A stretch of DNA of 64,000 nt. Origin: an uncultured Planctomycetia bacterium. Lineage in GTDB: Bacteria; Omnitrophota; Gorgyraeia; Duberdicusellales; 4484-171. The translations under genes were made by a program, and so were the position numbers. The number at the start of each line of letters is the position of its first letter. Position 1 is the first letter of the stretch. Below are positions 29,827 through 50,457 of the stretch, piece after piece. Location: positions 12,900 to 76,899 of the forward strand of contig CAZHYN010000004.1 in assembly GCA_964536865.1 (NCBI GenBank), written 5' to 3'. Under the pieces are notes generated by a model, which was not told the origin of the DNA, did no database searches, and saw nothing but the letters and a program-made list of their open reading frames with translations.

Positions 29827-29932
29827 TAACAAATTCGCCAAAGGCGATTTCCCTTATTTGTTCCGACAATACTTTCGTTTCAGAGTTAACTTCTAGCTTA
29901 AAAAAGAAGTTAATGAATGTGAGATTAAACCA

Positions 29933-30016: not shown

Positions 30017-30185
30017 ATTTACTTTATATTATTATCCTACTCCTATTAGTCTTGCTCCTTAACAACTTCTCTCTTCTATTAACTACACGGGAACAACTAA
30101 ATTGAGCTTCGCTGTAATAACAGCGAAAGTTGTTACCGCCACCTCGGCATTTACTTTATATTATTATCCTACTCCTATTAGTTCT
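30000..30185. repeat. ~49-bp direct repeat (30000-30048 and 30137-30185) copying the tRNA-Leu 5' end plus its upstream flank
   Basis: ccgccacctcggcatttactttatattattatcctactcctattagt occurs twice, 137 bp apart. The spacer contains palindrome cgctgtaataacagcg. Confidence 0.85.
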
Positions 30186-30421: not shown

Positions 30422-31170
30422 TCCGCCAAAGGCGGACCCACTTATGAGGGGCGATCCTTGATGGGCCATTTAAAAATAAATAAATTTCTTCTTTGGTCAT
30501 ACTCTAGGGGTGACAGCAAGCCGTGTTTAACTACCTCGGATTTACTTATAGGCTTGCGTCAGAGGGGCAGAGCCCCTATGAGGAGCGTAAGCGACAGGGC
30601 CGTAGTTTCCGCCAAAGGCGGACCCGCTTATGAGCGGGCAGCAGGGAGTAAGTTGTCTGCAACGTTAAGTTGCAGTATTCTTAAATATACAACTTCCTCC
30701 ATTGTTTATGATGTTAAAGATAGGCTGTCTCTTTAAAATAGAAGCTAAAGAAAAGTGATGGGGCCGTAGTTCAGCAGGGAGAACGCTACGCTGGCAGCGT
30801 AGAGGTCAGGGGTTCAAATCCCCTCGGCTCCACCAGTTAGATTGTTAAATTCTCATTTTTAGGTGATATAAATGTTTTTATTAATAGATGGTAATTTTTA
30901 AGGTTTTCCAGTAAAATTGCGGGGCCGTAGTTTCCGCCAAAGGCGGACCCGCTTATGAGCGGGCAGCAGGGAGTAAGTTGTCTGCAACGTTAAGTTGCAG
31001 TATTCTTAAATATACAACTTCCTCCATTGTTTATGATGTTAAAGATAGGCTGTCTCTTTAAAATAGAAGCTAAAGAAAAGAGATGGGGCCGTAGTTCAGC
31101 AGGGAGAACGCTACGCTGGCAGCGTAGAGGTCACGGGTTTCCGCCAGAGGCGGACCCGCCTTTAGGCGGG
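30422..31170 (+). repeat. Four copies of a ~31-nt GC-rich double-hairpin mini-element (30422-30451, 30608-30639, 30933-30964, 31140-31170)
   Basis: Consensus tccgccaRaggcgga-cccgcYtWtRaGcggg. Copies 1-3 follow gccgtagtt, a tRNA-Ala 5'-end mimic. Copy 4 lies inside the T-loop of the second tRNA-Ala. Stem 2 shows compensatory T:A to C:G change between copies. Confidence 0.8.
30760..30835 (+). tRNA. tRNA-Ala(GGC) with G3:U70 identity pair; CCA encoded
   Basis: GGGGCCGTAGTTCAGCAGGGAGAACGCTACGCTGGCAGCGTAGAGGTCAGGGGTTCAAATCCCCTCGGCTCCACCA. Anticodon loop CTGGCAG. T arm AGGGG-TTCAAAT-CCCCT. Confidence 0.9.
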
Positions 31171-34838: not shown

Positions 34839-36323
34839 TTGCATAATTTCTTCCTCTTTATTTCTTTAATTGTAGGTATCCTTATAGGGCGTGTTGCTAA
34901 AGATTTTTCCCTCTTCATTGTTTTCTTAGCAATCCTTTTCTTCTTTTCTTCTTATTTTTTCCACAGGAAAAATAAACCGATTGCCTGGGGAATTTGTTTT
35001 TTCTTATTTTTTACAGTTTTAGGTACTCTTTGGAGTTTACCTAAATATTTTACTACTCCTGAGGAAGCGTTAGCAAAAAGTAAGAGATTTCATCTCAAGG
35101 TAATATCCTTTCCTAAGAGAGTTTCAATCAAACAAATTTACTTTGCCCAGATATTTAGAGTAGATGACTCTCCCTTTTATCTTAAGACAAGAGTTGTGGA
35201 TTTCTCTCCTCTATCGAAGGAATACTTAAGTAAATATCAAGTGGAAGGAAAACTTTCTCTCCATATCTATAAGGGGAGGAAATTTTATACTCTCTGGATA
35301 AGTAAAGATACTTTCCAACTTAAGTGTAAAGATAAATGGATTGATAATCTTTTAAAAAAGGTAACGTTTTTTTTGACTAACCTCTATAAGTCTAAATTAT
35401 CTGCCCAAGCATATTCTTTTCTCTCTGCAACATTTTTAGGAAGGAGAGAATTACTTCCAAGGAAAGTAAAGAAAATTTTTGCTGCTTCAGGAACCTCTCA
35501 TCTTCTAGCTATAAGTGGATTACATATAGGGATGACAGCTTTGGTATTAATCTACCTTTTAAGATTTTTTAAACTAATCTTTCCTAAAAGGATAGTTATT
35601 TCTATTCTTTTTCTCTTTTTCTACACATTTCTGGTGGGGGCAAGAGCCTCCACTCTAAGGGCTGCTATTATGTATACAATTTTTGGTATAAGTTTTCTTT
35701 TGCAGAGAAAGACTCATCCTCTTAACTCTTTAGGTCTATCTGGAATAATTTCTTTATTCATAAATCCTTTATGGGTTTTTGATGTAGGATTTCAGCTCTC
35801 CTTTATCTCAGTATTGGGAATTATTTTAGGATATAGAACTTTTAGAGTAAGTATATCTTCATCAACTTTTCTGGTTACTTACTTTAAAAACATTCTCTTT
35901 ACTTCTCTATTCGTTTTACTATCTATTGGGGGATTGACTTCTTATTACTTTGGAAAGGTTTATATCTCCAGTATATTGACTAACTGGATTCTAATTCCTC
36001 TTTTTGTATTTATTATCTTTGTTAATTTTCTGTTCATAATTTTATCTTTTTTCCCCTTCTTAGGAGAGTGTATGGGCTCTTTAGTTTCTTTCCTCATCTT
36101 TGGTTTCATAAAGATTGCAAGTTTTCTTTCTTGGTTAAGTAGGATTAATTTGGACTTTTATTTTTCTAGGGAAGGGGTCATCGCCTACTATTTAATTTTA
36201 ACCTCCTTAGGAAGTTTGATGTATAGATTTAGAGGAAAGTTTGGAAAGATTAATTCTGTTTTCAAAAGGCCAGCTTTATGTATAATAAATATAATATGGA
36301 AAAAATTCATAAATCTAAAGTAA
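34839..36323 (+). CDS. comEC: ComEC/Rec2-family competence membrane channel (no metallo-beta-lactamase domain)
   Basis: 494 aa polytopic. Core competence-domain motif AASGTSHLLAISGLHIG. Confidence 0.75.
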   Translation: MHNFFLFISLIVGILIGRVAKDFSLFIVFLAILFFFSSYFFHRKNKPIAWGICFFLFFTVLGTLWSLPKYFTTPEEALAKSKRFHLKVISFPKRVSIKQIYFAQIFRVDDSPFYLKTRVVDFSPLSKEYLSKYQVEGKLSLHIYKGRKFYTLWISKDTFQLKCKDKWIDNLLKKVTFFLTNLYKSKLSAQAYSFLSATFLGRRELLPRKVKKIFAASGTSHLLAISGLHIGMTALVLIYLLRFFKLIFPKRIVISILFLFFYTFLVGARASTLRAAIMYTIFGISFLLQRKTHPLNSLGLSGIISLFINPLWVFDVGFQLSFISVLGIILGYRTFRVSISSSTFLVTYFKNILFTSLFVLLSIGGLTSYYFGKVYISSILTNWILIPLFVFIIFVNFLFIILSFFPFLGECMGSLVSFLIFGFIKIASFLSWLSRINLDFYFSREGVIAYYLILTSLGSLMYRFRGKFGKINSVFKRPALCIINIIWKKFINLK

Positions 36324-36961
36324 TTTTTCTAGAGATCTTAAGAGGAGTACTTCTACCTTTCTTTTTCCTTATTCTCTTAGGAAGTTTATACTCTATCTAT
36401 AGGTACAGATTTGCTAATTCTTTATCTAGTGCTATCCAGAGTCAAATTGTAAAATACATCCGCACTTTTTTTATCGTTAATATTACTTTTCTTTTTCAAA
36501 GAGCAATAGGAGGGGCTTTCTCTTGGTATGAAAAGAAAGTCGCTCCTCAGACAAAGACTCATTTAGATGAGGAATTAATTCCTCTCCTAAGAAGAACAGC
36601 GAAGATTGGACTATGGGTTATCTCCTTACTTATAATTCTACCTCTATTTGGTGTAAACATTACTGCCTTAGTTACTGCTTTAGGAGTGGGTTCCTTAGCT
36701 ATTGCTTTAGCTGCCCAAGATACAATTGCTAATATAATTGCAGGATTTATGATTATGATAGATAGACCTTTTAGGATAGGGGACAGAATAAAATTACCTA
36801 CGGGAGAGATGGTTACTGTCTTAGATATCGGAATAAGACGCTCTAAATTCTCATTGGATGAGCAAGCGATAGTGATCGTTCCTAATTTAGAATTAAGTAA
36901 AAACAAAATTGTGAATTTTACCTATGCTGAGGAGAGGCAAAAAGAGTCTGCTAAGAAATGA
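36278..36961 (+). CDS. mscS: Small-conductance mechanosensitive channel, MscS family
   Basis: TM3 pore helix GVGSLAIALAAQDTIANIIAGFMIMIDRPFRIGDRI. The true start is probably the internal Met (MEKIHKS); the annotated start overlaps comEC. Confidence 0.75.
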   Translation: MYNKYNMEKIHKSKVIFLEILRGVLLPFFFLILLGSLYSIYRYRFANSLSSAIQSQIVKYIRTFFIVNITFLFQRAIGGAFSWYEKKVAPQTKTHLDEELIPLLRRTAKIGLWVISLLIILPLFGVNITALVTALGVGSLAIALAAQDTIANIIAGFMIMIDRPFRIGDRIKLPTGEMVTVLDIGIRRSKFSLDEQAIVIVPNLELSKNKIVNFTYAEERQKESAKK

Positions 36962-37030
36962 AACAACTAATAGGAAAGATTTAGTTTTTAGAAGAATAAA
37001 GAGAGACATTTAGGAGGTTTAGTTTTTCCT

Positions 37031-39358
37031 ATGGAAGAGTATTATCGTTCCTACTGCGATGATGATCTCTGGTTAATTAGAGAAACTGTATGGGCCCCTT
37101 CTCTTCAAAATATCCGTGAATCCCAGTTTACCTTGGGCAATGGTTACTTTGCTAGTCGAGGAGTTTTAGAGGAGATCCCTTACCAGGCTATGTCTGGCAC
37201 CTACATTGCAGGAATTTACGATGGAATTGGTTCTCAGGTTAAGGAGTTAGTAAATTTCCCTAATCCCTTCAATTTCCGTTTTACAGTGAAGGGAGAAAAA
37301 GTTGGTTTAGCAACAATGAGGAATGTATTTCATAAGCGTATCTTAAATACTAAGAAGGCAGTCTTGGTAAGGCATACACTTTTTGAGAATGTAAGAAGAC
37401 ACAGATTCGATTACCAGTCTATAAGGTTCGTTTCTCTAGATAATAAGAATTTAGGAGTCATGCAGATTATCTTTACTCCCCTAGATAAAAATTGCCTTTT
37501 AGATATCTATACAGGAATTGATACTTCAGTTTTTAATGTAGGTACAGTTACTGAAGGTAAGAAAAGACACTTTAAAGTTAAGGAAGCAGGTCAGTTCAAA
37601 GACGCAGGTTATTTGGCAGTTGTAACTTTAGAGAAGAAGTATGTAGTGATTTACTGGGCAGGATTTTACTATGAAGTTGATGGGAAAAAGATACCTGCTT
37701 CTGACAATGTTTTTCAACTCGAACTTAAGAAAGACCAGAGTGTGAAATTTACTAAATTATTTTTTATAAAACATTTTCCTTATCGAGAAGATATCCACCT
37801 TTACAAAGAAAGGACATTTGTTAGATTTTCTCAAGCCTTCCGCACGGATTTTAATAAGCTTATCACTCAACATATAAAGAAGTGGGAGAGTGTATGGAGA
37901 AAGGTAGATATACTCATTGAGGGGACAGCTAATCTGCAGCAAAATTTAAGATTCAACCTCTATCATCTTCTCATAGCTGCTCCCCAAGATAGAGGATTTT
38001 CCAGTATTGGTGCTCGAACTTTAAGTGGAGAAGGTTACCGGGGACATGTCTTTTGGGATACTGAGTTATTTGTGATGCCTTTCTATCTTTATACTCTCCC
38101 TCAAGTTGCCAAAAATATTCTTCTCTATCGCTACCGAAGGTTACCTAAAGCTAGGGAGTTAGCCAAGAATGAAGGATATAATGGAGCTAAATTTCCTTGG
38201 GAATCTGCAGATACGGGAGAGGAAGAAACACCTGCCTGGGCAAGAGATTTCGATAGTTCCATTATAAAGATTCAAACCCATCTTTACGAACATCATATAA
38301 CTGCGGATGTAGCTTATGCTTTCTATAGATACTACTTAGCTACTGGTGACGAAGAGTTCTTAAAAAAATATGCCTGCGAAGTTATTTTTGAGACAGCACG
38401 TTTCTGGGCTTCTCGAGTTTTTTACAATAGAACTACTAAGAGATACGAGATAAGAGGGATAATTGGGCCAGATGAGTTTCACATTAATGTGAATAACAAT
38501 GCTTATACTAATGGCTTGGTACAGTGGATTCTTTCTTTAGGTCATACTCTCTTTTTCTACCTTAAAAAGAGAGCGCCATCATCTTTCTCTCAACTTAAGG
38601 AGAAATTAGGACTTAGGGAGAAGGAAGTAAAGGAGTGGGTAAAGATCGCTAAGAAGCTTAAGTTAAATATAGATAAGAAGAGTAGAGTTATTGAACAATT
38701 TGATGGATATTTTAAATTGAGAGAGATAGAACTTGAGAAAACCGATGAGAATGGCATTCCTCTTCTTCCTAAGTACCTTAAAGCTAAAGACTTAAGGTAT
38801 ACAAAACTCATAAAACAGGCTGACGTTTTGATGCTTCTCTATATCTTAACGAATAAGTTTAGTTCCTCCGTAATAAGAGCCAACTATAATTACTACATAA
38901 AAAGGACTCTTCATAAATCCTCTCTCAGTGCTCCTATTCATGCCATAATGGCAGTAAAGTGTGAAGACATGCACCGGGCTTATAATCTTTTTAATGTTTC
39001 TCTCCGTACTGATATAAGCAATCTTTACGGTAATACTCAGGAAGGTATTCATGCGGCAAGCTTAGGAGGAACGTGGCAAGCGGTAGTTTTTGGTTTTTGT
39101 GGGATAGAATTTATAGATGATATAATTAGTGTTACCCCTAAATTTCCTCGTACCTGGCAAAAGGTGAAATTCTCTCTCACTTATCGAGGCGATAGAGTAG
39201 AATTTGATTTGACAAATGAGGAGGTGAGAGTAAAAATAGTATCTAAAAAGAAGAAAAAAACGAAAGTGGTAGTATTTGGTAAACCTTATTCTATTTTGAC
39301 TAATAAAAAGTATAAGTTTTTCAAAAAAGGTGTTAAGAAGGAGGAGTACTATTACTAA
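37031..39358 (+). CDS. GH65 glycoside hydrolase family disaccharide phosphorylase (kojibiose, trehalose or maltose phosphorylase type)
   Basis: 775 aa. N-terminal beta-sandwich, (alpha/alpha)6 catalytic barrel with RGHVFWDTE...PWESADTGEE motifs, C-terminal beta-sandwich. Confidence 0.8.
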   Translation: MEEYYRSYCDDDLWLIRETVWAPSLQNIRESQFTLGNGYFASRGVLEEIPYQAMSGTYIAGIYDGIGSQVKELVNFPNPFNFRFTVKGEKVGLATMRNVFHKRILNTKKAVLVRHTLFENVRRHRFDYQSIRFVSLDNKNLGVMQIIFTPLDKNCLLDIYTGIDTSVFNVGTVTEGKKRHFKVKEAGQFKDAGYLAVVTLEKKYVVIYWAGFYYEVDGKKIPASDNVFQLELKKDQSVKFTKLFFIKHFPYREDIHLYKERTFVRFSQAFRTDFNKLITQHIKKWESVWRKVDILIEGTANLQQNLRFNLYHLLIAAPQDRGFSSIGARTLSGEGYRGHVFWDTELFVMPFYLYTLPQVAKNILLYRYRRLPKARELAKNEGYNGAKFPWESADTGEEETPAWARDFDSSIIKIQTHLYEHHITADVAYAFYRYYLATGDEEFLKKYACEVIFETARFWASRVFYNRTTKRYEIRGIIGPDEFHINVNNNAYTNGLVQWILSLGHTLFFYLKKRAPSSFSQLKEKLGLREKEVKEWVKIAKKLKLNIDKKSRVIEQFDGYFKLREIELEKTDENGIPLLPKYLKAKDLRYTKLIKQADVLMLLYILTNKFSSSVIRANYNYYIKRTLHKSSLSAPIHAIMAVKCEDMHRAYNLFNVSLRTDISNLYGNTQEGIHAASLGGTWQAVVFGFCGIEFIDDIISVTPKFPRTWQKVKFSLTYRGDRVEFDLTNEEVRVKIVSKKKKKTKVVVFGKPYSILTNKKYKFFKKGVKKEEYYY

Positions 39359-40553
39359 GAAGGAGAAAGTTCACAAAAAAAAGTTAAGTATTGCTCACCT
39401 CCATTGGGGATTCCCCCCTATTATAGGAGGGGTAGAAACCCACCTTACCATAATTCTCCCTCAGATGGCAAAAAAAGGTTATAAGGTGTCTCTTTTAACT
39501 TGTTCTGCAGAAAAGGCGAAAGCAAGAGAAAGTTACTGTGGTGTAGAAGTTTTTCGTTATCCCATTATGGACTTAAACTGGCTCTATAAAAGAGGGTTAC
39601 AGGGATTGGAGGAGGAGGTAACTCACATTTTCACTTCCTTTATAGATAAGACTAAACCTCATATTCTTCATGCCCATAATATGCATTATTTTAGTGAGAT
39701 TCACGCTTTCACTCTAGAAAGAATAGCGAAGAAGAAGGGTATTCCTTTGATTCTTACTGCTCATAATGTTTGGGATGACGTTTTATTTTTAGAACTTACT
39801 CATAAGATAGATTGGCAGCATATTATTGCGGTAAGCCACTATATTAAGAGAGAAATTATAGGGATAGGTGTTGATGATAGAAAAATTACTGTTGTTCATC
39901 ATGGTTTAGATGAAACTAAGTTCCATCCTCGGATCAAATCATCACGAATTTTGAAAAAATATCCTCAGCTTAAGGGTAGGAAAGTAATTTTTCATCCTGC
40001 AAGAATTGGTTTAGCTAAGGGATGTGACATAAGTATTAAGGCTGTAAATATCGTAAGAGAGAAGTATCCCGAAGTAATTTTAGTATTAGCGGGTTCTAGA
40101 AATATCATCGATTGGGGAGCGACTCAGCAGAAAGATATCGCTTACATGGTAAATCTTATAAAACATTTTAGGTTAGAAAAAAATATTCTCATTGATTTCT
40201 ATTCTTTGGAAGAGATGCGTGAACTTTATGCTCTGAGCGATATTTGTGTTTATCCTTCTACAGTTCCTGAACCTTTTGGATTGACGATGCTGGAGGCTCA
40301 GGCTTGTGGCAAACCCATGGTAGTTACTAACTCAGGAGGAATGCCTGAGATAATAAAAGATGGGGTAAATGGTTTTGTTATTAATATTAGAGATTTTGAG
40401 AACTTAGCAGCTAAAATTGTTCAATTGCTAGAAGATAGGCGTTTGCGAGAAAGATTAGGTTATACAGGGAGGCAGATTGTGGAGTCTTATTATACTAAGG
40501 AGAGGGTTACTCACGATACACTTGCAGTTTATAAGAAGTTTATTAATTTTTAG
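39330..40553 (+). CDS. GT4-family glycosyltransferase
   Basis: GT-B fold. C-terminal EPFGLTMLEAQACGKPMVVTNSGGMPEII motif. Start codon uncertain: a GTG at 39330 overlaps the GH65 stop, and an A8 tract lies near the 5' end. Confidence 0.75.
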   Translation: MLRRRSTITKKEKVHKKKLSIAHLHWGFPPIIGGVETHLTIILPQMAKKGYKVSLLTCSAEKAKARESYCGVEVFRYPIMDLNWLYKRGLQGLEEEVTHIFTSFIDKTKPHILHAHNMHYFSEIHAFTLERIAKKKGIPLILTAHNVWDDVLFLELTHKIDWQHIIAVSHYIKREIIGIGVDDRKITVVHHGLDETKFHPRIKSSRILKKYPQLKGRKVIFHPARIGLAKGCDISIKAVNIVREKYPEVILVLAGSRNIIDWGATQQKDIAYMVNLIKHFRLEKNILIDFYSLEEMRELYALSDICVYPSTVPEPFGLTMLEAQACGKPMVVTNSGGMPEIIKDGVNGFVINIRDFENLAAKIVQLLEDRRLRERLGYTGRQIVESYYTKERVTHDTLAVYKKFINF

Positions 40554-40562
40554 AAGTTAGAT

Positions 40563-42032
40563 ATGCTTAGGGGATGGAGCAAAAAAACTGTAATAGACCT
40601 AGTAAAGACTAAGTTAGAGAGGGCCTTATTTGTCGTTGTCTCTAACCGCCAACCTTACATCCATAAATTTATTAAAGGGAAAATTCATTGTTTAAAAGGT
40701 CCGGGAGGAGTGGTAACCGCTATTGATCCTGTAATGCAGGAGATTAAAGGTTTATGGGTCTGCTGTGGTAGTGGAGATGCCGATAAAATTGTGGCTAAAG
40801 ATAGTAAAGTGAATGTTCCTCCGGAGATGCCATCTTATCAAGTTAAGTATGTATGGTTAACTAAGGAAGAGAATTTAGGTTATTATTATGGATTTTCTAA
40901 TCAAGCTCTCTGGCCTCTCTCTCATCTGGTTTTTGTTAAACCAATATTTAGAGACGAGGATTGGAGAATCTATAAAGAGGTGAATAAAAAATTTGCTCAA
41001 AGTATCTATGAAGAAATAAAGGATAAGAGGGCAGTAGTGTTTATTCAGGATTATCATCTTGCTATGGTAAGTAAGTATTTAAAGGAGAGCAAACCCGATG
41101 TTGTTACTATTCTTTTTTGGCATATTCCCTGGCCTACTTACGATGTGTTTAGAATCCTTCCCTGTAAACAAGAATTTTTAGAAGGTTTACTTAGTTATAA
41201 TCTCTTAGGGTTTCATATAAGGTACTTCTGTAACAATTTCTTTGAGGCAGTAGCAAACGAACTGGAGAGCAAAATAAATAGAGAGACTTCTACTATTATC
41301 TATCAAGGTAAATCTACATTAGTAAAAGCTTATCCTATAAGTATTGATTTTGAAGGGATAAGTAATAAGAGTGGAGAAAAAGATGTAGAAGAGGCTATGG
41401 TGTCTTTAAAAGAAGAGTTTGGTTTAGAGGGTTACAAGATTATTGTGGGGTTAGATAGAATAGATTATACCAAAGGAATAGTAGAGAGAATTCTAGCCAT
41501 AGATAAACTCCTTCAGTTGCACCCCGAGCTTAGAGAGAAGATTATATTCATTCAGATGGGTGAAATATCTCGTATTCATATAGCTCAGTACAAACAACTC
41601 AACGATCAAATAAATGCCTTGGTAGAGGAGGTAAACTTTAAGCATTCTACCGATAGTTGGCGACCTATAATTTTTGTAAGGAGACACCTTTCTTTCAGTG
41701 AACTTTTAGCCTTCTATAGATTAGCAAATGTATGTATAGTAAGTTCTCTCCATGATGGAATGAATCTGGTAGCTAAGGAATTTATCTCTTCTCGGTGTGA
41801 CGAATTAGGAGTACTCCTCTTAAGTAGGTTTACAGGAGCAGCACGAGAGCTTAAAGAAGCGGTTCTTATCAATCCTTACTCTCAAAGGGAGAGTGCAGAA
41901 GCGCTTTTCTTTGCTCTTGGTATGAAGGAAGAGGAACAAAAAAGGAGGATGAAAGCTTTAAGAGTGTATATTCAGCGTAACAATATCTGGCGTTGGATTG
42001 GTAAAATAGTTGTTGATATTCCTTGGAAGTGA
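40563..42032 (+). CDS. otsA: Alpha,alpha-trehalose-phosphate synthase (GT20)
   Basis: 489 aa. GT20 motifs WVHDYHL-like VFIQDYHLAM, HIPWP, and RGVNLVAKEF-like DGMNLVAKEF. Confidence 0.85.
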   Translation: MLRGWSKKTVIDLVKTKLERALFVVVSNRQPYIHKFIKGKIHCLKGPGGVVTAIDPVMQEIKGLWVCCGSGDADKIVAKDSKVNVPPEMPSYQVKYVWLTKEENLGYYYGFSNQALWPLSHLVFVKPIFRDEDWRIYKEVNKKFAQSIYEEIKDKRAVVFIQDYHLAMVSKYLKESKPDVVTILFWHIPWPTYDVFRILPCKQEFLEGLLSYNLLGFHIRYFCNNFFEAVANELESKINRETSTIIYQGKSTLVKAYPISIDFEGISNKSGEKDVEEAMVSLKEEFGLEGYKIIVGLDRIDYTKGIVERILAIDKLLQLHPELREKIIFIQMGEISRIHIAQYKQLNDQINALVEEVNFKHSTDSWRPIIFVRRHLSFSELLAFYRLANVCIVSSLHDGMNLVAKEFISSRCDELGVLLLSRFTGAARELKEAVLINPYSQRESAEALFFALGMKEEEQKRRMKALRVYIQRNNIWRWIGKIVVDIPWK

Positions 42033-43624
42033 TGGATGATGTTGCTTTTCCTTTCCAAGCAGTTGTTTTTGATTTAGATGGTGTAATTACCCAAACTGCC
42101 TACCTTCATTTCCAAGCTTGGAAGCAAACCTTTGATGAGTATTTACGTTTCAGAGAGAAAGAAAAATTTAGAGAATTTACTGAGCAAGATTATCTTAACT
42201 ATGTAGATGGAAGACCACGCTATGATGGAGTTAAGACTTTTCTTTCCTCTCGAGGGATTCAAATTAGTTGGGGAGAGCCTACTGATTCTCCTGGTGAGGA
42301 AACAATCTGCGGGTTAGGGAATAAAAAAAATGTGATTTTTAAAAATCTTTTAGAAAGTAAAGGAGCCAAAAAGTATCCTACCACAGTAGAGTTTATCCAA
42401 GAGCTTAAAGAAAAGGGAATAAAGATAGGTGTAGCCTCTTCCTCTAAAAATTGTCGTGCTATTCTCAGCTCTACCCGAATTATAGATCTCTTTGATGCTT
42501 GTGTAGATGGGATAGTTTCTCAACAGTTTAATCTTCAGGGTAAACCTGAACCAGATATATTTCTCTTAACTAGTAAAGATTTGAAGGTTTCCCCTTCCAA
42601 GACAGTTGTAGTTGAAGATGCTAGTTCAGGGGTAGAGGCAGCTCGCAATGGAGGTTTCGGATTAGTCATAGGAGTTGCCCGCAAAGATAATAAAGAAGAT
42701 CTCTTAAATTCGGGAGCGGATTTAGCATTGAGTGATCTAAAGTTCATAGATATAGAGTGGATCAATGAATGGTTTAAAAAAAGCCCTTTTTACCTTTTTG
42801 ATTTCTGGGATAGAGGAACAAGAGAGGAATTAGGAGTTTTTAAGAAGAACGAAGATATAGTTTTAAACCCCTGGTATTTTTTGAGCTTTAAAGATGCTAT
42901 TTTTTCCAGAAAGCAGTTAGCCTTTTTCTTTGATTATGATGGCACACTTACCCCTATTGTTAAGAGACCAGAATTAGCAGTGTTATCTACCCAGATGCGC
43001 TCCTTAATTAAAAAAATAGCTAAGAAATACCCTACCGCCATAGTGAGCGGAAGACAGAGAGAAGAGGTAGAAAAGTTAGTAGGAGTAGAAGGCATTTACT
43101 ATGTAGGAAGCCATGGTTTTGATATAAAAGGAGGCGGTTTTTCTTATATTCATCCCCAGCTAAAGGGAATAGTTCCTTTAATCTCTCATATAGCAGAAGA
43201 GTTTTCTACCAAGTTGAGAAGTATCCAGGGGGTGATCATTGAGAATAAGAAGTTCAGTGTTGCTCTCCATTATCGTCTGGTAGAGGATAAGTTCTTAGAC
43301 AATATTAAGAAGGTAGTAGATGAAGTAAAGAGAGAGTATTCTAACTTGCGGTTAATGTGTGGCAAGAAGGTTTTTGAATTTATGCCTGATATTGATTGGG
43401 ATAAAGGTAAAGCCATAAGATGGCTTCTTAGTATACTAAATATTTCTTGGAGAGAGTATGCAGTAATTTATATTGGCGATGATACTACTGATGAAGATGC
43501 ATTCAGAATGGTGCGGACTAGGGGAATAGGGATTCTAGTTTCTGAAGGTAAGGCTACTTCAGCAGCTGATTACTTTGTTCACTCTCCCCAGGAAGTTAGA
43601 AAGCTTTTAGAAAGATTTGTATGA
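42023..43624 (+). CDS. Fusion of a beta-phosphoglucomutase-like HAD domain with trehalose-6-phosphate phosphatase
   Basis: N-terminal half has HAD motif I VVFDLDGVIT and a beta-PGM-like cap. C-terminal half restarts with FFFDYDGTLTP and ends in OtsB-like motifs GDDTTDEDAF. 10-bp overlap with otsA. Confidence 0.8.
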   Translation: MEVMDDVAFPFQAVVFDLDGVITQTAYLHFQAWKQTFDEYLRFREKEKFREFTEQDYLNYVDGRPRYDGVKTFLSSRGIQISWGEPTDSPGEETICGLGNKKNVIFKNLLESKGAKKYPTTVEFIQELKEKGIKIGVASSSKNCRAILSSTRIIDLFDACVDGIVSQQFNLQGKPEPDIFLLTSKDLKVSPSKTVVVEDASSGVEAARNGGFGLVIGVARKDNKEDLLNSGADLALSDLKFIDIEWINEWFKKSPFYLFDFWDRGTREELGVFKKNEDIVLNPWYFLSFKDAIFSRKQLAFFFDYDGTLTPIVKRPELAVLSTQMRSLIKKIAKKYPTAIVSGRQREEVEKLVGVEGIYYVGSHGFDIKGGGFSYIHPQLKGIVPLISHIAEEFSTKLRSIQGVIIENKKFSVALHYRLVEDKFLDNIKKVVDEVKREYSNLRLMCGKKVFEFMPDIDWDKGKAIRWLLSILNISWREYAVIYIGDDTTDEDAFRMVRTRGIGILVSEGKATSAADYFVHSPQEVRKLLERFV

Positions 43625-46047
43625 AAGATTCTACCTGGACGATTACCTACACTCACTTTGAACCTGCTCATGAGGGACTACGGGAGGCCCTATGTACTTT
43701 GGGTAACGGTTACTTTGCTACTCGAGGAGCCGCTCCTGAAGGGATAATCTCAAAAATTCACTATCCAGGAACTTACATTGCTGGAGTTTATAATAAACTC
43801 TCTACTAACCTAGCAGGGAAAATAGTAGTTAATGAAGATTTAGTAAATTGTCCTAACTGGCTCTATATTACCTTTAAGGTCGGAGAGGAAGATTGGTTTA
43901 TTCCTTCAGAAGCTAACCTCACCTTTTACCATCAGGAGTTAGATATGCGTGAAGGCATATTGAAGAGAACACTTAAATTTAAAGATAAACAAGGAAGAGT
44001 TACTCAGGTATTTACCGAGAGGTTAGTTCATATGAGGTATCCCCATATAGGAGCATTGAGGTATCTTATTGCTCCTTTAAACTATGACGGTTGGATTACT
44101 GTAAGAGTTATGCTTGATGGAGCAGTAGAGAATAGAGGAGTGGAGAGATACCGGCAATTGAATTCCAAACATCTTAAACCTTCTGCCTTAGGTAGCTTTG
44201 GAAAAGATGGTATATACTTGGTTATGGTTACTTCTCAATCGAAGATAAAAATAGCCCAAGCTTGCAGAGTTTCGTTCTTTATAAATGGAGAGAGAGCAAG
44301 GCCAGTGATAAAGACCGTACGCCGGCGATTGATGGAAGGTAGAGAAAGGATTGGTCAGGAGTTCCGTTTCTTCGCTCGTCGGAGAGTTTCCTATGAGGTG
44401 CAGAAGATTGTCTCTATATATACCTCTAAAGATTTCTTGAAAAGAGACCCTGCCAAAGAAGCAATCAGAGCGGTAAAGAGGGTGCCCTCTTTTATTAAAT
44501 TGGTAGCTCATCAAAGGCAAACCTGGCAAAGTCTTTGGAATAGATTCGATATAACTATTCAGGGAGATAAATTTTCTCAGTGGGCGTTAAGGGTCCATAT
44601 TTTTCATCTTTTGCAAACAGCCTCTCCTAACAATGTCAATTTAGATGTAAGCATTCCTGCTCGTGGTCTTCATGGAGAAGCTTACCGAGGTCATATCTTT
44701 TGGGATGAGATTTTTATTATGCACTTTTATGATCTTCACTATCCTCAGATTTCTAAGGTCTTTCTCTTGTACCGTTACCGGAGATTAGAGAAAGCAAGAC
44801 AGTTAGCTAAGAGATTCGGTTACAAAGGGGCTATGTATCCTTGGCAAAGTGCCTCAACGGGAGATGAGGAGACTCAGATGTATCACTTGAATCCTCTCTC
44901 GGGTAAGTGGGGACCCGATTATAGTTCTTATCAAAGACATATCTCTTTTGCTGTTGCTTATAACGTATGGAAGTACTGGGAAAGAACTTTGGATTTTCAA
45001 TTCCTTATTCACTTCGGTGCAGAGATGATTCTTTCTATAGCTCAGTTTGGAGCAAGCCTTGTTAGTTACAGTAGAAAAGATAAGCGCTACCATACTGAAA
45101 GAGTGATGGGGCCAGACGAATTTCATGAAAGATATCCTCATGCTAAGCAACCAGGGCTTAGAGATAATACCTATACTAACTTTATGATTGTCTGGACTCT
45201 CAATAAGGCCAAGGAGGTTATTAAAATTCTACCTTCCTCTTATAAAAACAGACTTTTCAAAAAACTAGGAATAACTGAGAAGGATTTGAAACTTTGGGAT
45301 GATATTACCAGAAGGATGAATATAGTGATCAATCGCAGGGGTATCATTGCTCAATTTGATGGTTACTTTGCTCTTAAAGAATTAGATTGGAAAAAGTACA
45401 TGTTTGAGTACGGGGACGTTAAAAGGATGGATAGAATCTTAAAAGCCGAGGGGAAAACTCCTGATGAATACAAGGTAACTAAGCAGGCAGATGTCCTTAT
45501 GATTTTTTATCTTTTCTCTCTTCGAGAAATCAAGAAAGTTTTTAATGAGTTAGGATATAGATTTGATCTTAAAATGTTGAGAAAAAACTATGAATACTAT
45601 AGTAGGAGAACCTCTCATGGTTCTACTCTGAGCAAAGTTGTACATTGTTTTGTAGCTCATAGTCTAGGGAAGAAAGAAGAAGCGTGGGATTGGTTTGTAG
45701 ATACGTTAGAATCAGATATATATGATACTCAGAGAGGGACTACTCCTGAAGGAATTCATACGGGAGTTATGGGAGGTTCCATCGATGTAGTAGTAAGAGC
45801 ATTTGCAGGTTTAAGTCTGGGTGATTCTATCAGGATAAATCCTTCTCTTCCTAAAAAATGGAGAAAACTCAGTTTAAAATTTCTCTACAGAGACCTGTGG
45901 TTTACTCTTTCTATTAGAGATAGAGCTTTTACACTCTCTGTAGATAAGGAAAAAAGGAGTAAAATATCTACTTCCATAGATATTGTAGTAGGGAATAGAG
46001 TTTATAAATTCCCCTTAGTAAGGAAGGCTACCTTCTCTATAAAGTAA
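43621..46047 (+). CDS. Second GH65-family disaccharide phosphorylase
   Basis: 808 aa paralogue of the 37031 gene (RGHIFWDE...PWQSASTGDEE). ATGA overlap with upstream gene. Confidence 0.8.
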   Translation: MKDSTWTITYTHFEPAHEGLREALCTLGNGYFATRGAAPEGIISKIHYPGTYIAGVYNKLSTNLAGKIVVNEDLVNCPNWLYITFKVGEEDWFIPSEANLTFYHQELDMREGILKRTLKFKDKQGRVTQVFTERLVHMRYPHIGALRYLIAPLNYDGWITVRVMLDGAVENRGVERYRQLNSKHLKPSALGSFGKDGIYLVMVTSQSKIKIAQACRVSFFINGERARPVIKTVRRRLMEGRERIGQEFRFFARRRVSYEVQKIVSIYTSKDFLKRDPAKEAIRAVKRVPSFIKLVAHQRQTWQSLWNRFDITIQGDKFSQWALRVHIFHLLQTASPNNVNLDVSIPARGLHGEAYRGHIFWDEIFIMHFYDLHYPQISKVFLLYRYRRLEKARQLAKRFGYKGAMYPWQSASTGDEETQMYHLNPLSGKWGPDYSSYQRHISFAVAYNVWKYWERTLDFQFLIHFGAEMILSIAQFGASLVSYSRKDKRYHTERVMGPDEFHERYPHAKQPGLRDNTYTNFMIVWTLNKAKEVIKILPSSYKNRLFKKLGITEKDLKLWDDITRRMNIVINRRGIIAQFDGYFALKELDWKKYMFEYGDVKRMDRILKAEGKTPDEYKVTKQADVLMIFYLFSLREIKKVFNELGYRFDLKMLRKNYEYYSRRTSHGSTLSKVVHCFVAHSLGKKEEAWDWFVDTLESDIYDTQRGTTPEGIHTGVMGGSIDVVVRAFAGLSLGDSIRINPSLPKKWRKLSLKFLYRDLWFTLSIRDRAFTLSVDKEKRSKISTSIDIVVGNRVYKFPLVRKATFSIK

Positions 46048-46058
46048 ATAGTTCATAA

Positions 46059-46715
46059 GTGGGAGGAGAATACTTTCATTTCCATACTCGGGTAACTCAG
46101 GTAGAGCTTTTAGGGTATACCGCTCGCAATGTAAAGGAGTTGTATCAAGGGATAAAAAGAGTTCCCTCTTCCAGTATATATCACCACACCCATCGTTATC
46201 TTGAGCAACACCGGTATTTTTCTCCTGAACATCCCAATGATTTTTCTTATTGGATTAATAATAGTTTAGGACTTAGGAAGTTGGGAGAGAGGATTGCTAG
46301 TGTTGATATCTTTCAGTTTTCTGATATAGAGGATTTACGAAAAGAATTTCTAATAATTTTAGATGAATATCTTAAAACTGCTCCTGCTTTAAGAGGTTGT
46401 CTTCCAGGGGAGGAGTTTCGTTTCCTTTCTTCAAAGATTTTTATTCTTCCTACACCTTTCAAGGCACATAATCTTGAAGAGTTTTCTCTTTATCTTAAGA
46501 GGGTTACTGTACACTCTCTCTACTTTCATATATTTGAAGCAAAGGTAAGATTAAAAAGAGCAGATAATGATTTCTCCTGTTGGCTAAGAGATCTAGGATA
46601 TAAGGAGTTAGCAGAAAAGATTTCCAAAATCGATCCATATACACATACTTTAGAAGGACTTAGGCAAAAGATCATAAATCTTGTAAGTGAACACCTATAT
46701 GGCAAGGATAGATGA
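46059..46715 (+). CDS. Conserved hypothetical protein in the trehalose cluster (218 aa)
   Basis: No TM segments, no recognisable motif. Tightly packed between GH65 and treT. Confidence 0.4.
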   Translation: MGGEYFHFHTRVTQVELLGYTARNVKELYQGIKRVPSSSIYHHTHRYLEQHRYFSPEHPNDFSYWINNSLGLRKLGERIASVDIFQFSDIEDLRKEFLIILDEYLKTAPALRGCLPGEEFRFLSSKIFILPTPFKAHNLEEFSLYLKRVTVHSLYFHIFEAKVRLKRADNDFSCWLRDLGYKELAEKISKIDPYTHTLEGLRQKIINLVSEHLYGKDR

Positions 46716-47919
46716 TTACCGTCCCATCGTAGGCAACCAGACTATTGATGAGCTTTACCTTCTGGGAGAAAAGCTAAAGAATATCACTATTCAAAATATA
46801 AATTCGACTCCTTCGGGGGGAGGTGTGGCAGAGATTCTTTCTCGAATGGTACCTCTCATGAAAGATGTAGGGTTAGATGTATGGTGGGATGTGATCAGAG
46901 GAGATGATCGTTTTTTTCAGATTACCAAAAAGATTCATAATGCTCTTCATGGAATAGAGGTTTCTCTTACTAGAGAGGAATTATCTTATTTTTTAGAGGT
47001 TAATCAAGAGAACGCTAAATCTATTAAAAAGTGGGCAGATATTGTTTTTGTCCATGATCCCCAACCTATCTACCTAGTTAGAGAGAAGAGAAAGCTTAAA
47101 AATAAATGGATCTGGCGTTGTCATATTGATTTCTCTAACCCTAAAAGAGATGTATGGCTATTTTTGAAGAAGCTCATTGAGAAGTATGATGCTAGTGTAT
47201 TTTCCGCTCCTACGTTTGCTCGGAGATTATCTATCAGACAAGTTCTTATTTACCCTTCTATTGACCCTTTAAGCGATAAGAACAAAGAGTTGGATCAAAG
47301 ATTTATCGATAACGTTTTAGAAAGGTTTGGTATCGATAGACAGAGGCCCATCGTCACTCAGATTTCCCGCTTTGATTATTTAAAAGACCCTATGGGAGTG
47401 ATTAAAGCCTTTCGCTTGGTAAAAAAGTATATAGATTGCCAGCTTATTTTAGCAGGAGGAGGGGCTAGAGATGATCCTGAAGGGGAGAGAGTGTTAAACG
47501 AGGTGAGGGAAGAGGCTAGGAAGGAGAGAGATATTCATATTATTTATCTTCCTCCAGAAAGTAATTTAGAGATAAATGCCTTACAACGTGCTTCTACGGT
47601 AATTCTTCAAAAATCTTTGAAAGAGGGCTTCGGTCTTACTGTAGCAGAAGCTTTGTGGAAAGAAAAACCAGTTATTGCTTCTTGGGTGGGAGGCATACCT
47701 TTGCAGATTGCTCATAAGTATTCAGGGATTCTTACTTACACTATCGAGGGGACCGCCCACTGGATAAAGCGACTAATTAATGAGCTGGAGTATGCCAAAA
47801 GATTAGCTAGGAATGGTAAGCAACATGTCAAAAATAATTTTCTTATTCTCCGTCAGATTCAAGATTACTTCCTCTTATTTTTATCCCTTTTTAACCCTCA
47901 AGATATAGTGTACCTTTGA
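46687..47919 (+). CDS. treT: Trehalose glycosyltransferring synthase TreT-like (GT4)
   Basis: N-terminal INSTPSGGGVAEILSRMVPLMKDVGLDVWWDVI closely resembles archaeal and Thermus-type TreT. 410 aa. Confidence 0.75.
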   Translation: MNTYMARIDDYRPIVGNQTIDELYLLGEKLKNITIQNINSTPSGGGVAEILSRMVPLMKDVGLDVWWDVIRGDDRFFQITKKIHNALHGIEVSLTREELSYFLEVNQENAKSIKKWADIVFVHDPQPIYLVREKRKLKNKWIWRCHIDFSNPKRDVWLFLKKLIEKYDASVFSAPTFARRLSIRQVLIYPSIDPLSDKNKELDQRFIDNVLERFGIDRQRPIVTQISRFDYLKDPMGVIKAFRLVKKYIDCQLILAGGGARDDPEGERVLNEVREEARKERDIHIIYLPPESNLEINALQRASTVILQKSLKEGFGLTVAEALWKEKPVIASWVGGIPLQIAHKYSGILTYTIEGTAHWIKRLINELEYAKRLARNGKQHVKNNFLILRQIQDYFLLFLSLFNPQDIVYL

Positions 47920-47943: not shown

Positions 47944-47972
47944 TTGACAAATTCTAGTGGTTCTGATATAGT
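47944..47972 (+). promoter_or_regulatory. Near-consensus sigma70 promoter: TTGACA, 17-bp spacer, TATAGT
   Basis: -35 at 47944-47949 and -10 at 47967-47972. The ATG of the downstream gene is only 9 nt after the -10, which implies a very short or leaderless 5' UTR. Confidence 0.55.
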
Positions 47973-48932: not shown

Positions 48933-49450
48933 AGAGGGTAATTCTTTTGTTTCTCTTACTAGGAGGCTGTGGTTATACTACCTACCTTGTGAGTTCCTCA
49001 TTAGGAGAAGGTAAAATTTATGTAAAACCAGTAGCTAATGAGGTCAGAATAACTTCTGAAGATAGAGCCTATTCTGATTATACTGTTTATCCTGTTCTCT
49101 TAGATAAAGATTTGACCAATGCTATCATTGATGAGTTACAAATAAGAACTCCTCTTAAAGTAGTAAGCTCTCCCGATGGTGCCTATACTTTAGAGTGTAA
49201 GATTGTTAACTATAAGAAGGAAGCACTAAGATACACTGATACTGACGAGGTTAATGAGCAAAGATTGAGATTATACGTTAAGGTAATAGTTTATGATGCT
49301 GAAAAGAATTTAATTAAAGAGAGAGAAGTGGTAGGAGAAGCTTCTTACTTTTTTTCGGGACGCCTGGCTTCTTCAGAGTCCGAAGCTTTAAATGAGCTTA
49401 TAGAAGATACAGCAAAGAGAGTAGTAGATACCCTTTCCCAAGACTGGTAA
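48929..49450 (+). CDS. LptE-like small lipoprotein
   Basis: Lipobox LLLGGCG. 173 aa. Sits directly upstream of holA, as E. coli lptE does. Confidence 0.5.
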   Translation: MKRVILLFLLLGGCGYTTYLVSSSLGEGKIYVKPVANEVRITSEDRAYSDYTVYPVLLDKDLTNAIIDELQIRTPLKVVSSPDGAYTLECKIVNYKKEALRYTDTDEVNEQRLRLYVKVIVYDAEKNLIKEREVVGEASYFFSGRLASSESEALNELIEDTAKRVVDTLSQDW

Positions 49451-50133
49451 TGGAAGGGAAAATTTTCTGTGTTATTGGTTTAGATTTCGAGCATCGTCAA
49501 AGAGCTATAGAAAATATAAAGAAAGGGTTATTAAAAGAAAAGACAACTTTCTTAAATACAGTGGTTCTATACTGCAAGAATTTGAATCTTCAGGAGTTAA
49601 AAAACACACTCTATACTTTTCCTTTAGAAAAAAAAAGAGTTGTTATTTTTAAGGGTGCTGAATATCTCTCTCAAGAAGTAAAACTATTTCTCTTAAAGAA
49701 GTTAAAGGATTTGCTCTCCTTGAATTATTTAATCTTTGAGATAGAGAGAGACCACGCTCAGTTTATTTACGACAGAAAAGTAAGAGAGGATAAGTTCTTT
49801 TCTTATCTTTTAAAGAGATGTATTTTAAGAAGAATTATTTCTATACAAGAAGATTATTCTCTAAATAAATTAATATCTCTGGTAAGGAGAAATGAACGAG
49901 CCCAGGCTTTTTCCACTTTAGAAAAGATGTTCTTGCAGCCCAAGAAAAGCGAGAATTTAGCAACTCAGATTTTAGGAGCATTAACTCGTGAATTTTCTTA
50001 TCTTACTAATCCTTACCAAAAGAGTAGATACTTTCAACTTTTCTGGGAGGCAGATAGATTAATAAAAGAAAAGGGTATTCCTTCTAAGTTAGCCTTGGAG
50101 ATACTTTTAGCAAAGTTGTTTGAGATAAGTTAA
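49450..50133 (+). CDS. holA: DNA polymerase III delta subunit-like protein (short)
   Basis: 227 aa helical protein in the conserved position after lptE. Weak delta-like pattern only. Confidence 0.45.
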   Translation: MEGKIFCVIGLDFEHRQRAIENIKKGLLKEKTTFLNTVVLYCKNLNLQELKNTLYTFPLEKKRVVIFKGAEYLSQEVKLFLLKKLKDLLSLNYLIFEIERDHAQFIYDRKVREDKFFSYLLKRCILRRIISIQEDYSLNKLISLVRRNERAQAFSTLEKMFLQPKKSENLATQILGALTREFSYLTNPYQKSRYFQLFWEADRLIKEKGIPSKLALEILLAKLFEIS

Positions 50134-50393
50134 GTTAATTGGTTGATGAGGGAAGCATATTTAGATTTCTCGCGGGCGGCCTTCTTAGGATGGATAGTTT
50201 TCTTACGTGCGGCTTTATCTAATGCTTTATAAACTTCCCTTAAAGCCTGTTTAGCATTCTCTAAGTCTTTATTCTGTAGAAATTTTTTGTATTTTTTTAT
50301 TGCTTCCTTGATAATTTTTTTTCTAATTAAATTTAGCTTACGTCTTTTTATGCTTTTTTTTAGCTCTTTTTTGGCAGACTTTCTTTGAGGCAT
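50130..50393 (-). CDS. rpsT: 30S ribosomal protein S20
   Basis: 87 aa, basic and helical. SAKK...RKLNL...HPKKAAREKS pattern. Confidence 0.9.
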   Translation of the reverse strand: MPQRKSAKKELKKSIKRRKLNLIRKKIIKEAIKKYKKFLQNKDLENAKQALREVYKALDKAARKKTIHPKKAAREKSKYASLINQLT

Positions 50394-50457
50394 CTTGACT
50401 CCTTTTTAAGGAACTTTTATACCAGAGAGATTCAAACCTGTCAAGATATTTTAATTT

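Follow-up and report, generated by a model that had tools for sequence, protein, structure and literature searches.

Gene content of the cluster

We analysed a 64,000-nucleotide stretch of DNA from an uncultured bacterium of the Omnitrophota (assembly GCA_964536865.1, contig CAZHYN010000004.1, positions 12,900 to 76,899; the whole stretch is called the window below) and concentrated on a cluster of eight consecutive plus-strand open reading frames (ORFs) at 36278-47919. As a whole, this cluster is a variation on trehalose operons already known, found in a phylum that has received little study. The part of most interest is a unit of two genes, of which one encodes a beta-phosphoglucomutase (beta-PGM)-type domain fused to a trehalose-6-phosphate (T6P) phosphatase domain and the other a glycoside phosphorylase of family GH65; this unit is conserved, self-contained, widespread and uncharacterised, and it may make trehalose from glucose-6-phosphate (G6P) alone, without a nucleotide sugar. 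A preliminary description of the DNA, made from the letters alone, had placed eight genes at exactly these coordinates and named mscS, two GH65 genes, GT4, otsA, the fusion, a gene without assignment and treT. The eight ORFs were recovered at these positions, with four of the seven gene junctions overlapping and the remaining three being gaps of 9, 11 and 69 nt, and Pfam and NCBIfam profiles agreed on every family that had been named. The gene content likewise supports the description of the cluster as one for trehalose and osmoadaptation that includes a mechanosensitive channel. The encoded products are as follows (lengths in amino acids, aa).

36278..36961, plus strand: short MscS-like mechanosensitive channel, 227 aa (PF21088 7.6e-10, PF00924 2.6e-15)
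37031..39358, plus strand: GH65-1, glycoside phosphorylase of the kojibiose-phosphorylase type, 775 aa (best PDB match 3WIQ, 6.3e-167)
39330..40553, plus strand: GT4 retaining glycosyltransferase, 407 aa from a GTG start (PF00534 2e-37, PF13439 1e-22)
40563..42032, plus strand: OtsA-type (GT20) T6P synthase, 489 aa (PF00982 1.1e-122)
42023..42790, plus strand: N-terminal domain of the fusion protein, approximately residues 1-256, beta-PGM-type HAD domain with a long cap insert (TIGR02009 171.6 bits)
42890..43624, plus strand: C-terminal domain of the fusion protein, approximately residues 290-533, HAD-IIB T6P phosphatase (PF02358 3.7e-51, TIGR00685 181 bits)
43621..46047, plus strand: GH65-2, glycoside phosphorylase of the predicted T6P-phosphorylase type, 808 aa (best PDB match 9LB6, 4.1e-141)
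46059..46715, plus strand: DUF5752, OrfY-like protein, 218 aa (PF19027 7e-67)
46687..47919, plus strand: TreT-type trehalose glycosyltransferring synthase, 410 aa (PF21269, the TreT-specific N-terminal domain, 7.7e-56)

The beta-PGM::T6P-phosphatase fusion protein

The fusion protein had been recognised in the preliminary description by the presence of two copies of HAD motif I, and both strings were found, AVVFDLDGV at residues 13-21 and FFFDYDGT at residues 301-308. The N-terminal domain (residues 12-213) scored 171.6 bits with TIGR02009, above the family cut-off of 153.35, and 130 bits with the beta-PGM equivalog TIGR01990, below its cut-off of 189.4. Its best match in the PDB was 8H5S, a 'Beta-phosphoglucomutase' with the same long cap insert (2.1e-48), which we take to be Rv3400 of Mycobacterium tuberculosis; the Lactococcus lactis enzyme, 1LVH, was more distant (9e-22). 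The active-site residues of the lactococcal enzyme (D8, D10, T16, H20, G46, R49, S114, S116, K117, N118, K145, E169 and D170) all have counterparts, in that order, at D17, D19, T25, H29, G63, R66, S139, S141, K142, N143, K174, E198 and D199. The catalytic residues are kept in 23 close and 80 distant homologues, with position 142 alternating between K and R, and the distal phosphate site typical of a mutase (S-x-S-K-N plus an Arg in the cap) is also present. The position of lactococcal K45 is occupied by D62. The preliminary description had allowed for a catalytically dead N-terminal domain, and the retention of its active-site residues in the 80 homologues speaks against this.

The C-terminal domain (residues 297-532) reached 181 bits with the T6P-phosphatase equivalog TIGR00685, for which the cut-off is 68, and its best match in the PDB was the trehalose-phosphate phosphatase 5GVX (1.4e-53). 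Residues D304, D306, G343, R344, K448, D486, D487 and D490 are invariant in the 80 homologues, and S342 is Ser in 77 and Thr in 3 of them. Both HAD active sites thus appear intact, and beta-PGM (EC 5.4.2.6) and T6P-phosphatase functions are predicted for the two halves of the polypeptide.

Two further observations concern the architecture of such proteins. 5GVX also aligns through residues 87-154, in its N-terminal region, to query residues 178-245, where the beta-PGM-like domain ends, which suggests that phosphatases of this kind descend from the same two-domain architecture, with the first domain having decayed. In another protein, P0003 (871 aa), a beta-PGM-like HAD domain is fused to PF19796 instead of the T6P phosphatase; its identity to the query is 52% over the N-terminal 46% of the latter.

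GH65-2, a predicted T6P phosphorylase

Both GH65 proteins of the cluster contain all three GH65 Pfam domains (E-values of 1e-118 to 1e-122), and they are 32% identical to each other. To assign them we took the specificity determinants of the family from published work (PMC11442529, PMC8537180) and used the numbering of the Caldicellulosiruptor saccharolyticus kojibiose phosphorylase (CsKP; 3WIQ), which is the closest solved relative of GH65-1. In this numbering, a phosphate site formed by K/R330, Y337, S631, S632 and H675 separates GH65 phosphorylases from hydrolases (PMC11442529).

GH65-2, the start of which overlaps the stop of the fusion gene by 4 nt, scored highest with 9LB6 (475 bits), followed by CsKP (358), BsGGP (275) and LbMP (166). 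9LB6 is a GH65 protein of lactic acid bacteria that was deposited as 'Trehalose-6-phosphate hydrolase' and is 63% identical to a 769-aa L. lactis GH65 protein named T6P phosphorylase by JGI; literature searches on 9LB6 returned nothing relevant. GH65-2 itself is 35% identical to that L. lactis protein (461 bits, compared with 274 bits for GH65-1), and in a neighbour-joining tree, calculated without bootstrapping, it was sister to the clade of T6P phosphorylases (TrePP) from lactic acid bacteria. Its phosphate site and catalytic acid are intact (R348, Y355, E500, S668, T669 and H713). Since the phosphate-binding residues are in place, GH65-2 should be a phosphorylase despite the PDB title of 9LB6. 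At the positions equivalent to CsKP 64, 392, 394 and 402 it reads D-Q-A-Q, and the characterised T6P phosphorylase of Caldithrix reads D-Q-G-Q. We therefore assigned GH65-2 to the T6P-phosphorylase type, with that activity being predicted.

Among the relatives of 9LB6 in lactic acid bacteria we also encountered P0342 (948 aa), in which a HAD domain (PF13419/PF00702) is fused to GH65; this amounts to a beta-PGM::GH65 protein without the phosphatase.

Conservation of the fusion gene and GH65-2 across genomes

When one genome per species was scanned, the fusion was present in at least 585 species genomes. These belong to the Omnitrophota, Planctomycetota, Atribacterota, Desulfobacterota, Alpha- and Gammaproteobacteria, Nitrospirota, Binatia, Bacteroidota, Acidobacteriota and Actinomycetota and to ethane-oxidising archaea. 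We examined the gene neighbourhoods of 80 genome loci, and 71 best loci had enough downstream sequence for the following gene to be read. In 66 of these 71, a GH65-2-like gene lay directly 3' of the fusion gene on the same strand, with a median distance of 13.5 nt from the fusion stop, and in one more it lay divergently upstream. The 65 neighbouring GH65 proteins share an invariant Arg, Tyr, catalytic Glu, first Ser and His; the residue at CsKP position 632 is Thr in 56 and Ser in 9 of them, and the pattern D-Q-[GSA]-Q is found in 61. Moreover, at least seven complete single-ORF proteins of about 1300-1400 aa join all three parts, HAD, T6P phosphatase and GH65, in one chain (L028, L029, L033, L036, L057, L075 and L083). 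The hosts of these triple fusions are two Desulfobacterales, two Desulfohalobiaceae, one member of the Actinomycetota (L083), Candidatus Ethanoperedens thermophilum (L033) and Candidatus Argoarchaeum ethanivorans (L036). In the last of these, the ORF at L036:9728-13927 (1399 aa) was confirmed by Pfam to contain HAD, Trehalose_PPase and the N, m and C domains of GH65. OtsB1 of M. tuberculosis (Rv2006) comprises 1327 aa, so the length of the triple fusions matches it (PMC11046441).

In other phyla the pair is surrounded by mutually unrelated genes, and in one complete Omnitrophota genome it stands alone. Cultured carriers of the pair include Modicisalibacter xianhensis CGMCC 1.6848, Kineobactrum sediminis F02, Marinimicrobium sp. 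ABcell2 and Lutibaculum baratangense AMV1, and among the complete genomes with it are CP070684.1, CP070797.1, CP070807.1, OZ243979.1 and OZ253473.1. The pair has OtsA as a neighbour in the window and at about a dozen of the 80 loci, and in most of the 80 no OtsA was found within 10 kb. A separate OtsB-OtsA also adjoins the pair in two Desulfobacterales genomes (L028 and L073), from which we conclude that in these genomes the fused domain is something other than just the phosphatase of an OtsAB system. The current annotation of the pair extends only to 'trehalose-phosphatase' and 'GH65 family protein'.

GH65-1 and the GT4 glycosyltransferase

GH65-1 carries every signature of the kojibiose-phosphorylase type (EC 2.4.1.230), to which it belongs with that activity as a prediction. 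Its catalytic acid is E482 (CsKP E483), the residues of the -1 subsite are present (F341, W342, D343, K595 and Q596), and the phosphate site is intact (R329, Y336, S630, S631 and H674). The +1 subsite contains the WET motif (W390/E391/T416), and the correlated positions read E-E-A-P-Q-K, which fits the pattern EEAPxx, with E-E-A-P at CsKP 64/392/394/402. The protein also paired with CsKP in the neighbour-joining tree. Trehalose phosphorylases (EC 2.4.1.64) are distinguished by the pattern T-R-I-G-P-P, by W-R-A in the +1 subsite and by short loops 3 and 7 (PMC11442529, PMC8537180). We rejected this assignment for both GH65 proteins, as the T-R-I-G-P-P pattern and W-R-A are absent; position 392, an R in trehalose phosphorylases, is occupied by E in GH65-1 and by Q in GH65-2, and loop 3 is long in both.

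The GT4 protein has an intact EX7E motif (E314-E322). It reached no NCBIfam equivalog, its closest PDB match was BshA at only 2e-22, and no characterised close relative was found among these profiles and structures. In three loci with three different arrangements (L002, L009 and L021) the GT4 gene lies directly 3' of the GH65-1-like gene and not after OtsA. The two proteins may work jointly on an alpha-1,2-glucoside that exchanges with a pool of beta-glucose-1-phosphate (beta-G1P), which is the least certain of our assignments. A second candidate role for GT4 is that of an OtsA activator, as described for Thermoproteus tenax below.

The start of the GT4 gene is ambiguous (39330-39470). Gene callers applied to a relative begin about 45 codons later, which gives a protein of 362 aa, and this shorter start would remove an N-terminal strand and a Gly-rich loop (KLSIAHLHWGFPPIIGGVETH). 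The longer ORF from GTG is more likely because the upstream stretch is conserved at the protein level in the relative. In L021, from a further member of the Omnitrophota, MscS and the GH65-1-like gene are separated by a beta-PGM-like HAD gene that stands alone (L021:5713-6345), and OtsA is absent within that locus.

OtsA, DUF5752 and TreT

The top PDB matches of OtsA are all T6P synthases, the first being 5JIJ (6.4e-80), and its score with TIGR02400 was 428 bits, under the equivalog cut-off of 564.85. TreT similarly scored 361 bits with NF041139, under the cut-off of 775. The best PDB match of TreT was 6ZJ4, 'Trehalose phosphorylase/synthase' (1.7e-120), presumably the TreT of Thermoproteus, and the Pyrococcus horikoshii TreT 2X6Q was matched at 9.4e-96.

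The gene between GH65-2 and TreT encodes a DUF5752 protein. Its AlphaFold2 model (predicted local distance difference test score, pLDDT, 88) shows an internally duplicated fold, and the sole Foldseek match was 4CSO, OrfY of T. tenax (E 1e-12, TM-score 0.57). A DUF5752 gene lies directly upstream of the TreT gene in all four of the other loci checked, which include Nitrospirota, WOR-3 and Elusimicrobia; a fused T6P synthase-phosphatase (TPSP) or OtsA-OtsB precedes DUF5752-TreT in three of the four, and a full-length MscS follows in one. By its modelled fold and these neighbourhoods, DUF5752 is an OrfY-like protein whose gene consistently accompanies that of TreT, and the pair OrfY/DUF5752-TreT is widespread in bacteria.

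In Thermoproteus, orfY is said to lie upstream of treT and to form part of a 'unidirectional TreT pathway' (reportedly the work of Kouril in 2008), and literature searches on OrfY and TreT returned nothing relevant. The window resembles that arrangement in that a DUF5752/OrfY-like gene is directly upstream of the TreT gene and overlaps it. It differs in its bacterial host and in the placement of the pair inside a larger operon.

A short MscS-like channel and the comparison with Thermoproteus tenax

The first protein of the cluster consists of a transmembrane region and the beta domain only. It ends about 12 residues past the beta domain, PF21082 is absent, and it aligns to residues 62-186 of E. 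coli MscS only; hydrophobic segments were found at residues 13-42 and 103-161. It is therefore a short MscS-like form that is, judged by its domains, missing the C-terminal cytoplasmic alpha/beta vestibule domain of canonical MscS. A pseudogene of truncated MscS was considered and rejected, as the same short form is conserved in the relatives L002, L003 and L021 at 54-87% identity. Naturally short MscS structures (171 aa) also exist in the PDB (9SDG). The ORF shares 46 nt with the end of comEC, and an alternative ATG at 36296, favoured by a promoter-like match at 36259-36286, may be the actual start. The channel would serve in solute release upon hypo-osmotic shock.

In T. tenax, the operon msc-gt-tpsp encodes a mechanosensitive channel of 197 aa that resembles the membrane part of MscS only, a GT4 protein that activates the synthase through complex formation, and tpsp rather than treT (PMC3634074). 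Like it, the cluster in the window has co-oriented genes for a short MscS-like channel, a GT4 protein, a T6P synthase of family GT20 and a T6P phosphatase. However, synthase and phosphatase are fused in T. tenax (TPSP), whereas here OtsA is separate and the phosphatase is fused to the beta-PGM domain; a GH65 gene sits between msc and gt here; and activation of the synthase by the glycosyltransferase is known for T. tenax only. By gene content, the short MscS, GT4, OtsA and T6P phosphatase are a bacterial counterpart of msc-gt-tpsp, an arrangement that had been called unique to Thermoproteales, where it was proposed to be a stress-response unit (PMC3634074).

Genomic context and inheritance of the cluster

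The cluster is bordered directly by comEC and a bamD-like gene. The upstream flank consists of core genes (LeuRS, ComEA-like and ComEC), as does the downstream flank (BamD/YfiO-like, LptE, rpsT, MurJ, UvrC, a release factor, SecA and Lnt). The whole set of eight genes recurs in a relative with about 85-90% protein identity, flanked there too by LeuRS-ComEA-ComEC on one side and BamD-LptE-MurJ-UvrC on the other. Proteins homologous to the fusion carry the names Candidatus Omnitrophota or Omnitrophica, and the DUF5752 protein matches, at 100% identity, a hypothetical protein from a Candidatus Omnitrophica metagenome-assembled genome. The composition of the cluster was compared with that of the rest of the window, with the following results.

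G+C content (GC): cluster 0.366, rest of window 0.355
G+C content at third codon positions (GC3): cluster 0.309, rest of window 0.306
Codon-usage distance: cluster 0.145, rest of window 0.149 +/- 0.020
Tetranucleotide distance: cluster 0.146, rest of window 0.147 +/- 0.014

A recent genomic island was rejected on the grounds that the composition equals that of the flanks, that synteny is kept in the relative and that neither mobility genes nor tRNA genes lie at the borders. These data point instead to a chromosomal operon that was vertically inherited within the Omnitrophota. The spacing of the genes suggests that all eight are co-transcribed. A pattern scan found no terminator-like site in the intergenic gaps of the cluster, and the top promoter-like match of the region was at 47944-47972, just 3' of treT; promoter and terminator patterns matched no more often than in shuffled sequence and are weak boundary hints only. 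Rfam and tRNA scans found no riboswitch or other RNA element inside or adjoining the cluster.

The only two tRNA genes detected, tRNA-Leu(CAA) at 29932-30017 on the minus strand and tRNA-Ala(GGC) at 30760-30835 on the plus strand, are about 5.5 kb upstream of the cluster, and since housekeeping genes lie between them and the cluster they do not mark the border of an island. The ribosomal protein gene rpsT (S20; 50150-50410, minus strand), between a 227-aa ORF without family match and murJ, belongs to the very few genes on the minus strand of the window, in which the GC skew is uniformly positive. This 227-aa ORF (49450-50133) and a 236-aa ORF (25787-26497) are conserved and have no Pfam match; the former is syntenic in the relative, where it lies between lptE and rpsT.

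A proposed route from glucose-6-phosphate to trehalose

Taken together, we consider it on balance probable that the cluster is a vertically inherited Omnitrophota operon that makes and controls the compatible solute trehalose by means of four modules, each of which is also found separately elsewhere. In module (a), OtsA would make T6P from nucleoside diphosphate (NDP)-glucose and G6P, and the phosphatase domain would release trehalose. Module (b) is the conserved unit. Here the beta-PGM domain would equilibrate G6P with beta-G1P, GH65-2 would work in the synthetic direction to convert beta-G1P and G6P to T6P and inorganic phosphate (Pi), and the fused phosphatase would pull T6P irreversibly to trehalose, so that the net reaction would be 2 G6P -> trehalose + 2 Pi without any nucleotide sugar. 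In module (c), the OrfY-like DUF5752 protein and TreT would form trehalose from NDP-glucose and glucose by the Thermoproteus-type route. Module (d), the least certain, would consist of GH65-1 and GT4 and would link an alpha-1,2-glucoside to the same pool of beta-G1P.

We give the synthetic direction of module (b), with its predicted enzymes, a roughly even chance. That the beta-PGM/T6P-phosphatase/GH65 unit is a natural nucleotide-sugar-free trehalose pathway, that it is widespread in energy-limited anaerobes and that it supplies a testable function for mycobacterial OtsB1 is a proposal we rate slightly short of even. The synthetic order is favoured because only one linear pathway employs all three activities, and because the phosphatase would have no role in catabolism of the Lactococcus type. 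A natural version of the pathway is further suggested by the adjacency in 66 of 71 loci, by the repeated three-domain fusions and by the invariant catalytic residues in all three domains. Regarding energetics, Andersson in 2001 reportedly found that the phosphorylase equilibrium favours T6P and that the beta-PGM equilibrium favours G6P about 30-fold; with such equilibria, G6P at millimolar levels could be enough to keep T6P forming, provided that the phosphatase draws it away. In L. lactis, trehalose catabolism relies on the same two families, TrePP (EC 2.4.1.216) and beta-PGM, and on the reactions T6P + Pi <-> beta-G1P + G6P and beta-G1P <-> G6P. There, however, T6P arises from uptake by the phosphotransferase system (PTS) and the flux is catabolic, whereas the window offers no PTS context and the phosphatase is fused to the mutase.

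T6P phosphorylase and beta-PGM do work synthetically in vitro, in systems that have been called artificial and 'new-to-nature' (PMC11442529, PMC13121652). These cascades (Taguchi 2020, as cited in PMC11442529; PMC13121652) resemble module (b) in combining synthetic TrePP with beta-PGM and dispensing with nucleotide sugars. They use maltose phosphorylase, start from maltose and end at T6P, whereas the unit described here is natural, conserved, sometimes fused and includes the phosphatase. Reviews recognise five or six trehalose routes, in which each route through T6P employs a nucleotide sugar and T6P phosphorylase is listed as degradative only. No description of natural TrePP-based biosynthesis was found in the literature searched, which lacked most subscription journals. 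In cultures of Ca. Ethanoperedens, trehalose made up 75% of the extracted metabolites and added trehalose was not consumed (PMC13597711); together with the triple fusion in the genome of Ca. Ethanoperedens thermophilum (L033), the accumulation gives circumstantial support to synthesis.

Several points weigh against this proposal. The beta-PGM equilibrium lies far towards G6P, so beta-G1P would be scarce and the flux might be small, and a third route looks redundant beside OtsA and TreT. GH65 and beta-PGM act catabolically in lactococci and mycobacteria. The enzymes of the modules were assigned by sequence alone, the scores of the N-terminal HAD domain, OtsA, TreT and GH65 all fall under the NCBIfam equivalog cut-offs, and the link between GT4 and GH65-1 is drawn from three arrangements only. 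The T6P-phosphorylase motif D-Q-G-Q-D-E (Caldithrix, subgroup 22) is robustly matched by GH65-2 at three of six positions (64, 392 and 402); position 394 is A and not G, and the reading at positions 416 and 585 shifts between D/K and W/E with the alignment used, in 9LB6 as well as here. Finally, OtsB1 of M. tuberculosis, which we take to have the same HAD, T6P-phosphatase and GH65 architecture as the triple fusions, bears on the question. It was reported to be without T6P phosphatase activity, and its mutant showed no phenotype (PMC11046441).

The main rival to synthesis is that the unit drains T6P or keeps its level steady. OtsA would then be the sole source of T6P, GH65-2 would phosphorolyse the surplus, beta-PGM would return beta-G1P to G6P and the phosphatase would convert T6P to trehalose, so that the module would partition or detoxify T6P or recover carbon after stress. 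This would agree with the characterised direction of T6P phosphorylase and beta-PGM in Lactococcus, which is catabolic (PMC11442529 and reviews), and with genetic evidence in cited work that growth of M. tuberculosis on trehalose needs the Rv3400 beta-PGM. That OtsA neighbours the pair in the window and at about a dozen loci also fits, and even the fusion would be explicable, as T6P or its products are the substrates of each of the three activities. However, phosphatase and phosphorylase would compete for one substrate within one polypeptide, whereas fused enzymes usually catalyse steps that follow one another. At most loci OtsA is absent within 10 kb and the neighbours are unrelated, a separate OtsB-OtsA is present besides the pair in L028 and L073, and a futile cycle that consumes uridine triphosphate would be costly for energy-limited anaerobes. 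We regard a T6P drain as unlikely on these grounds, though clearly in contention. It is improbable that GH65-2 and the HAD-IIB domain act on some other phosphorylated alpha-glucoside and that the compatible solute is not trehalose. In its favour, GH65-2 shares no more than 35% identity with the L. lactis enzyme, position 394 carries A in place of G here and is S or A in 13 of the 65 orthologues, and acceptor promiscuity is well documented for GH65 (the literature of PMC11442529 and PMC8537180). The C-terminal domain nevertheless passes the T6P-phosphatase equivalog widely, with 181 against 68 bits, and is closest in structure to a trehalose-phosphate phosphatase, and the module lies among trehalose genes in several genomes.

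The preliminary description had itself offered a different account, namely a horizontally acquired or shared island with three independent trehalose routes, among them two GH65 trehalose phosphorylases, and a trio of TreT, GT and MscS as known from T. tenax. All the families it named are present, and the closeness of TreT to 6ZJ4 together with the match of DUF5752, its 'unknown gene', to T. tenax OrfY would allow for an old exchange of modules between archaea and bacteria. OtsA with a phosphatase and TreT are indeed there, but two of the routes meet at T6P and depend on a single phosphatase domain between them, which is not the independence that had been proposed. Its suggestion that the arrangement would fit a TrePP pathway was right for GH65-2, as judged by best matches, the D-Q-A-Q residues and the tree. 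The phylogeny that it had put forward as a check places GH65-1, with its full kojibiose signature, among kojibiose phosphorylases, a non-trehalose specificity, and GH65-2, with Q rather than R at 392, among T6P phosphorylases; neither is thus the trehalose phosphorylase it had in mind. Another of its checks, of codon usage and GC, found the cluster to be like its flanks, and with synteny in the relative there is no sign of recent acquisition. The published T. tenax operon is msc-gt-tpsp, without treT (PMC3634074). The account as a whole seems to us very improbable.

Implications

If the synthetic reading of module (b) is true, the unit would constitute a cheaper trehalose pathway in which one nucleoside triphosphate is saved per trehalose. 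Metagenome hits to GH65 'TreP/MalP' would then need to be re-read; they now count as signs that trehalose is broken down, as in the case of alkane-oxidising consortia that accumulate trehalose. The unit would also offer a three-enzyme or single-polypeptide route for the biotechnological production of trehalose or T6P, and it would provide a concrete hypothesis for the function of OtsB1 in M. tuberculosis.

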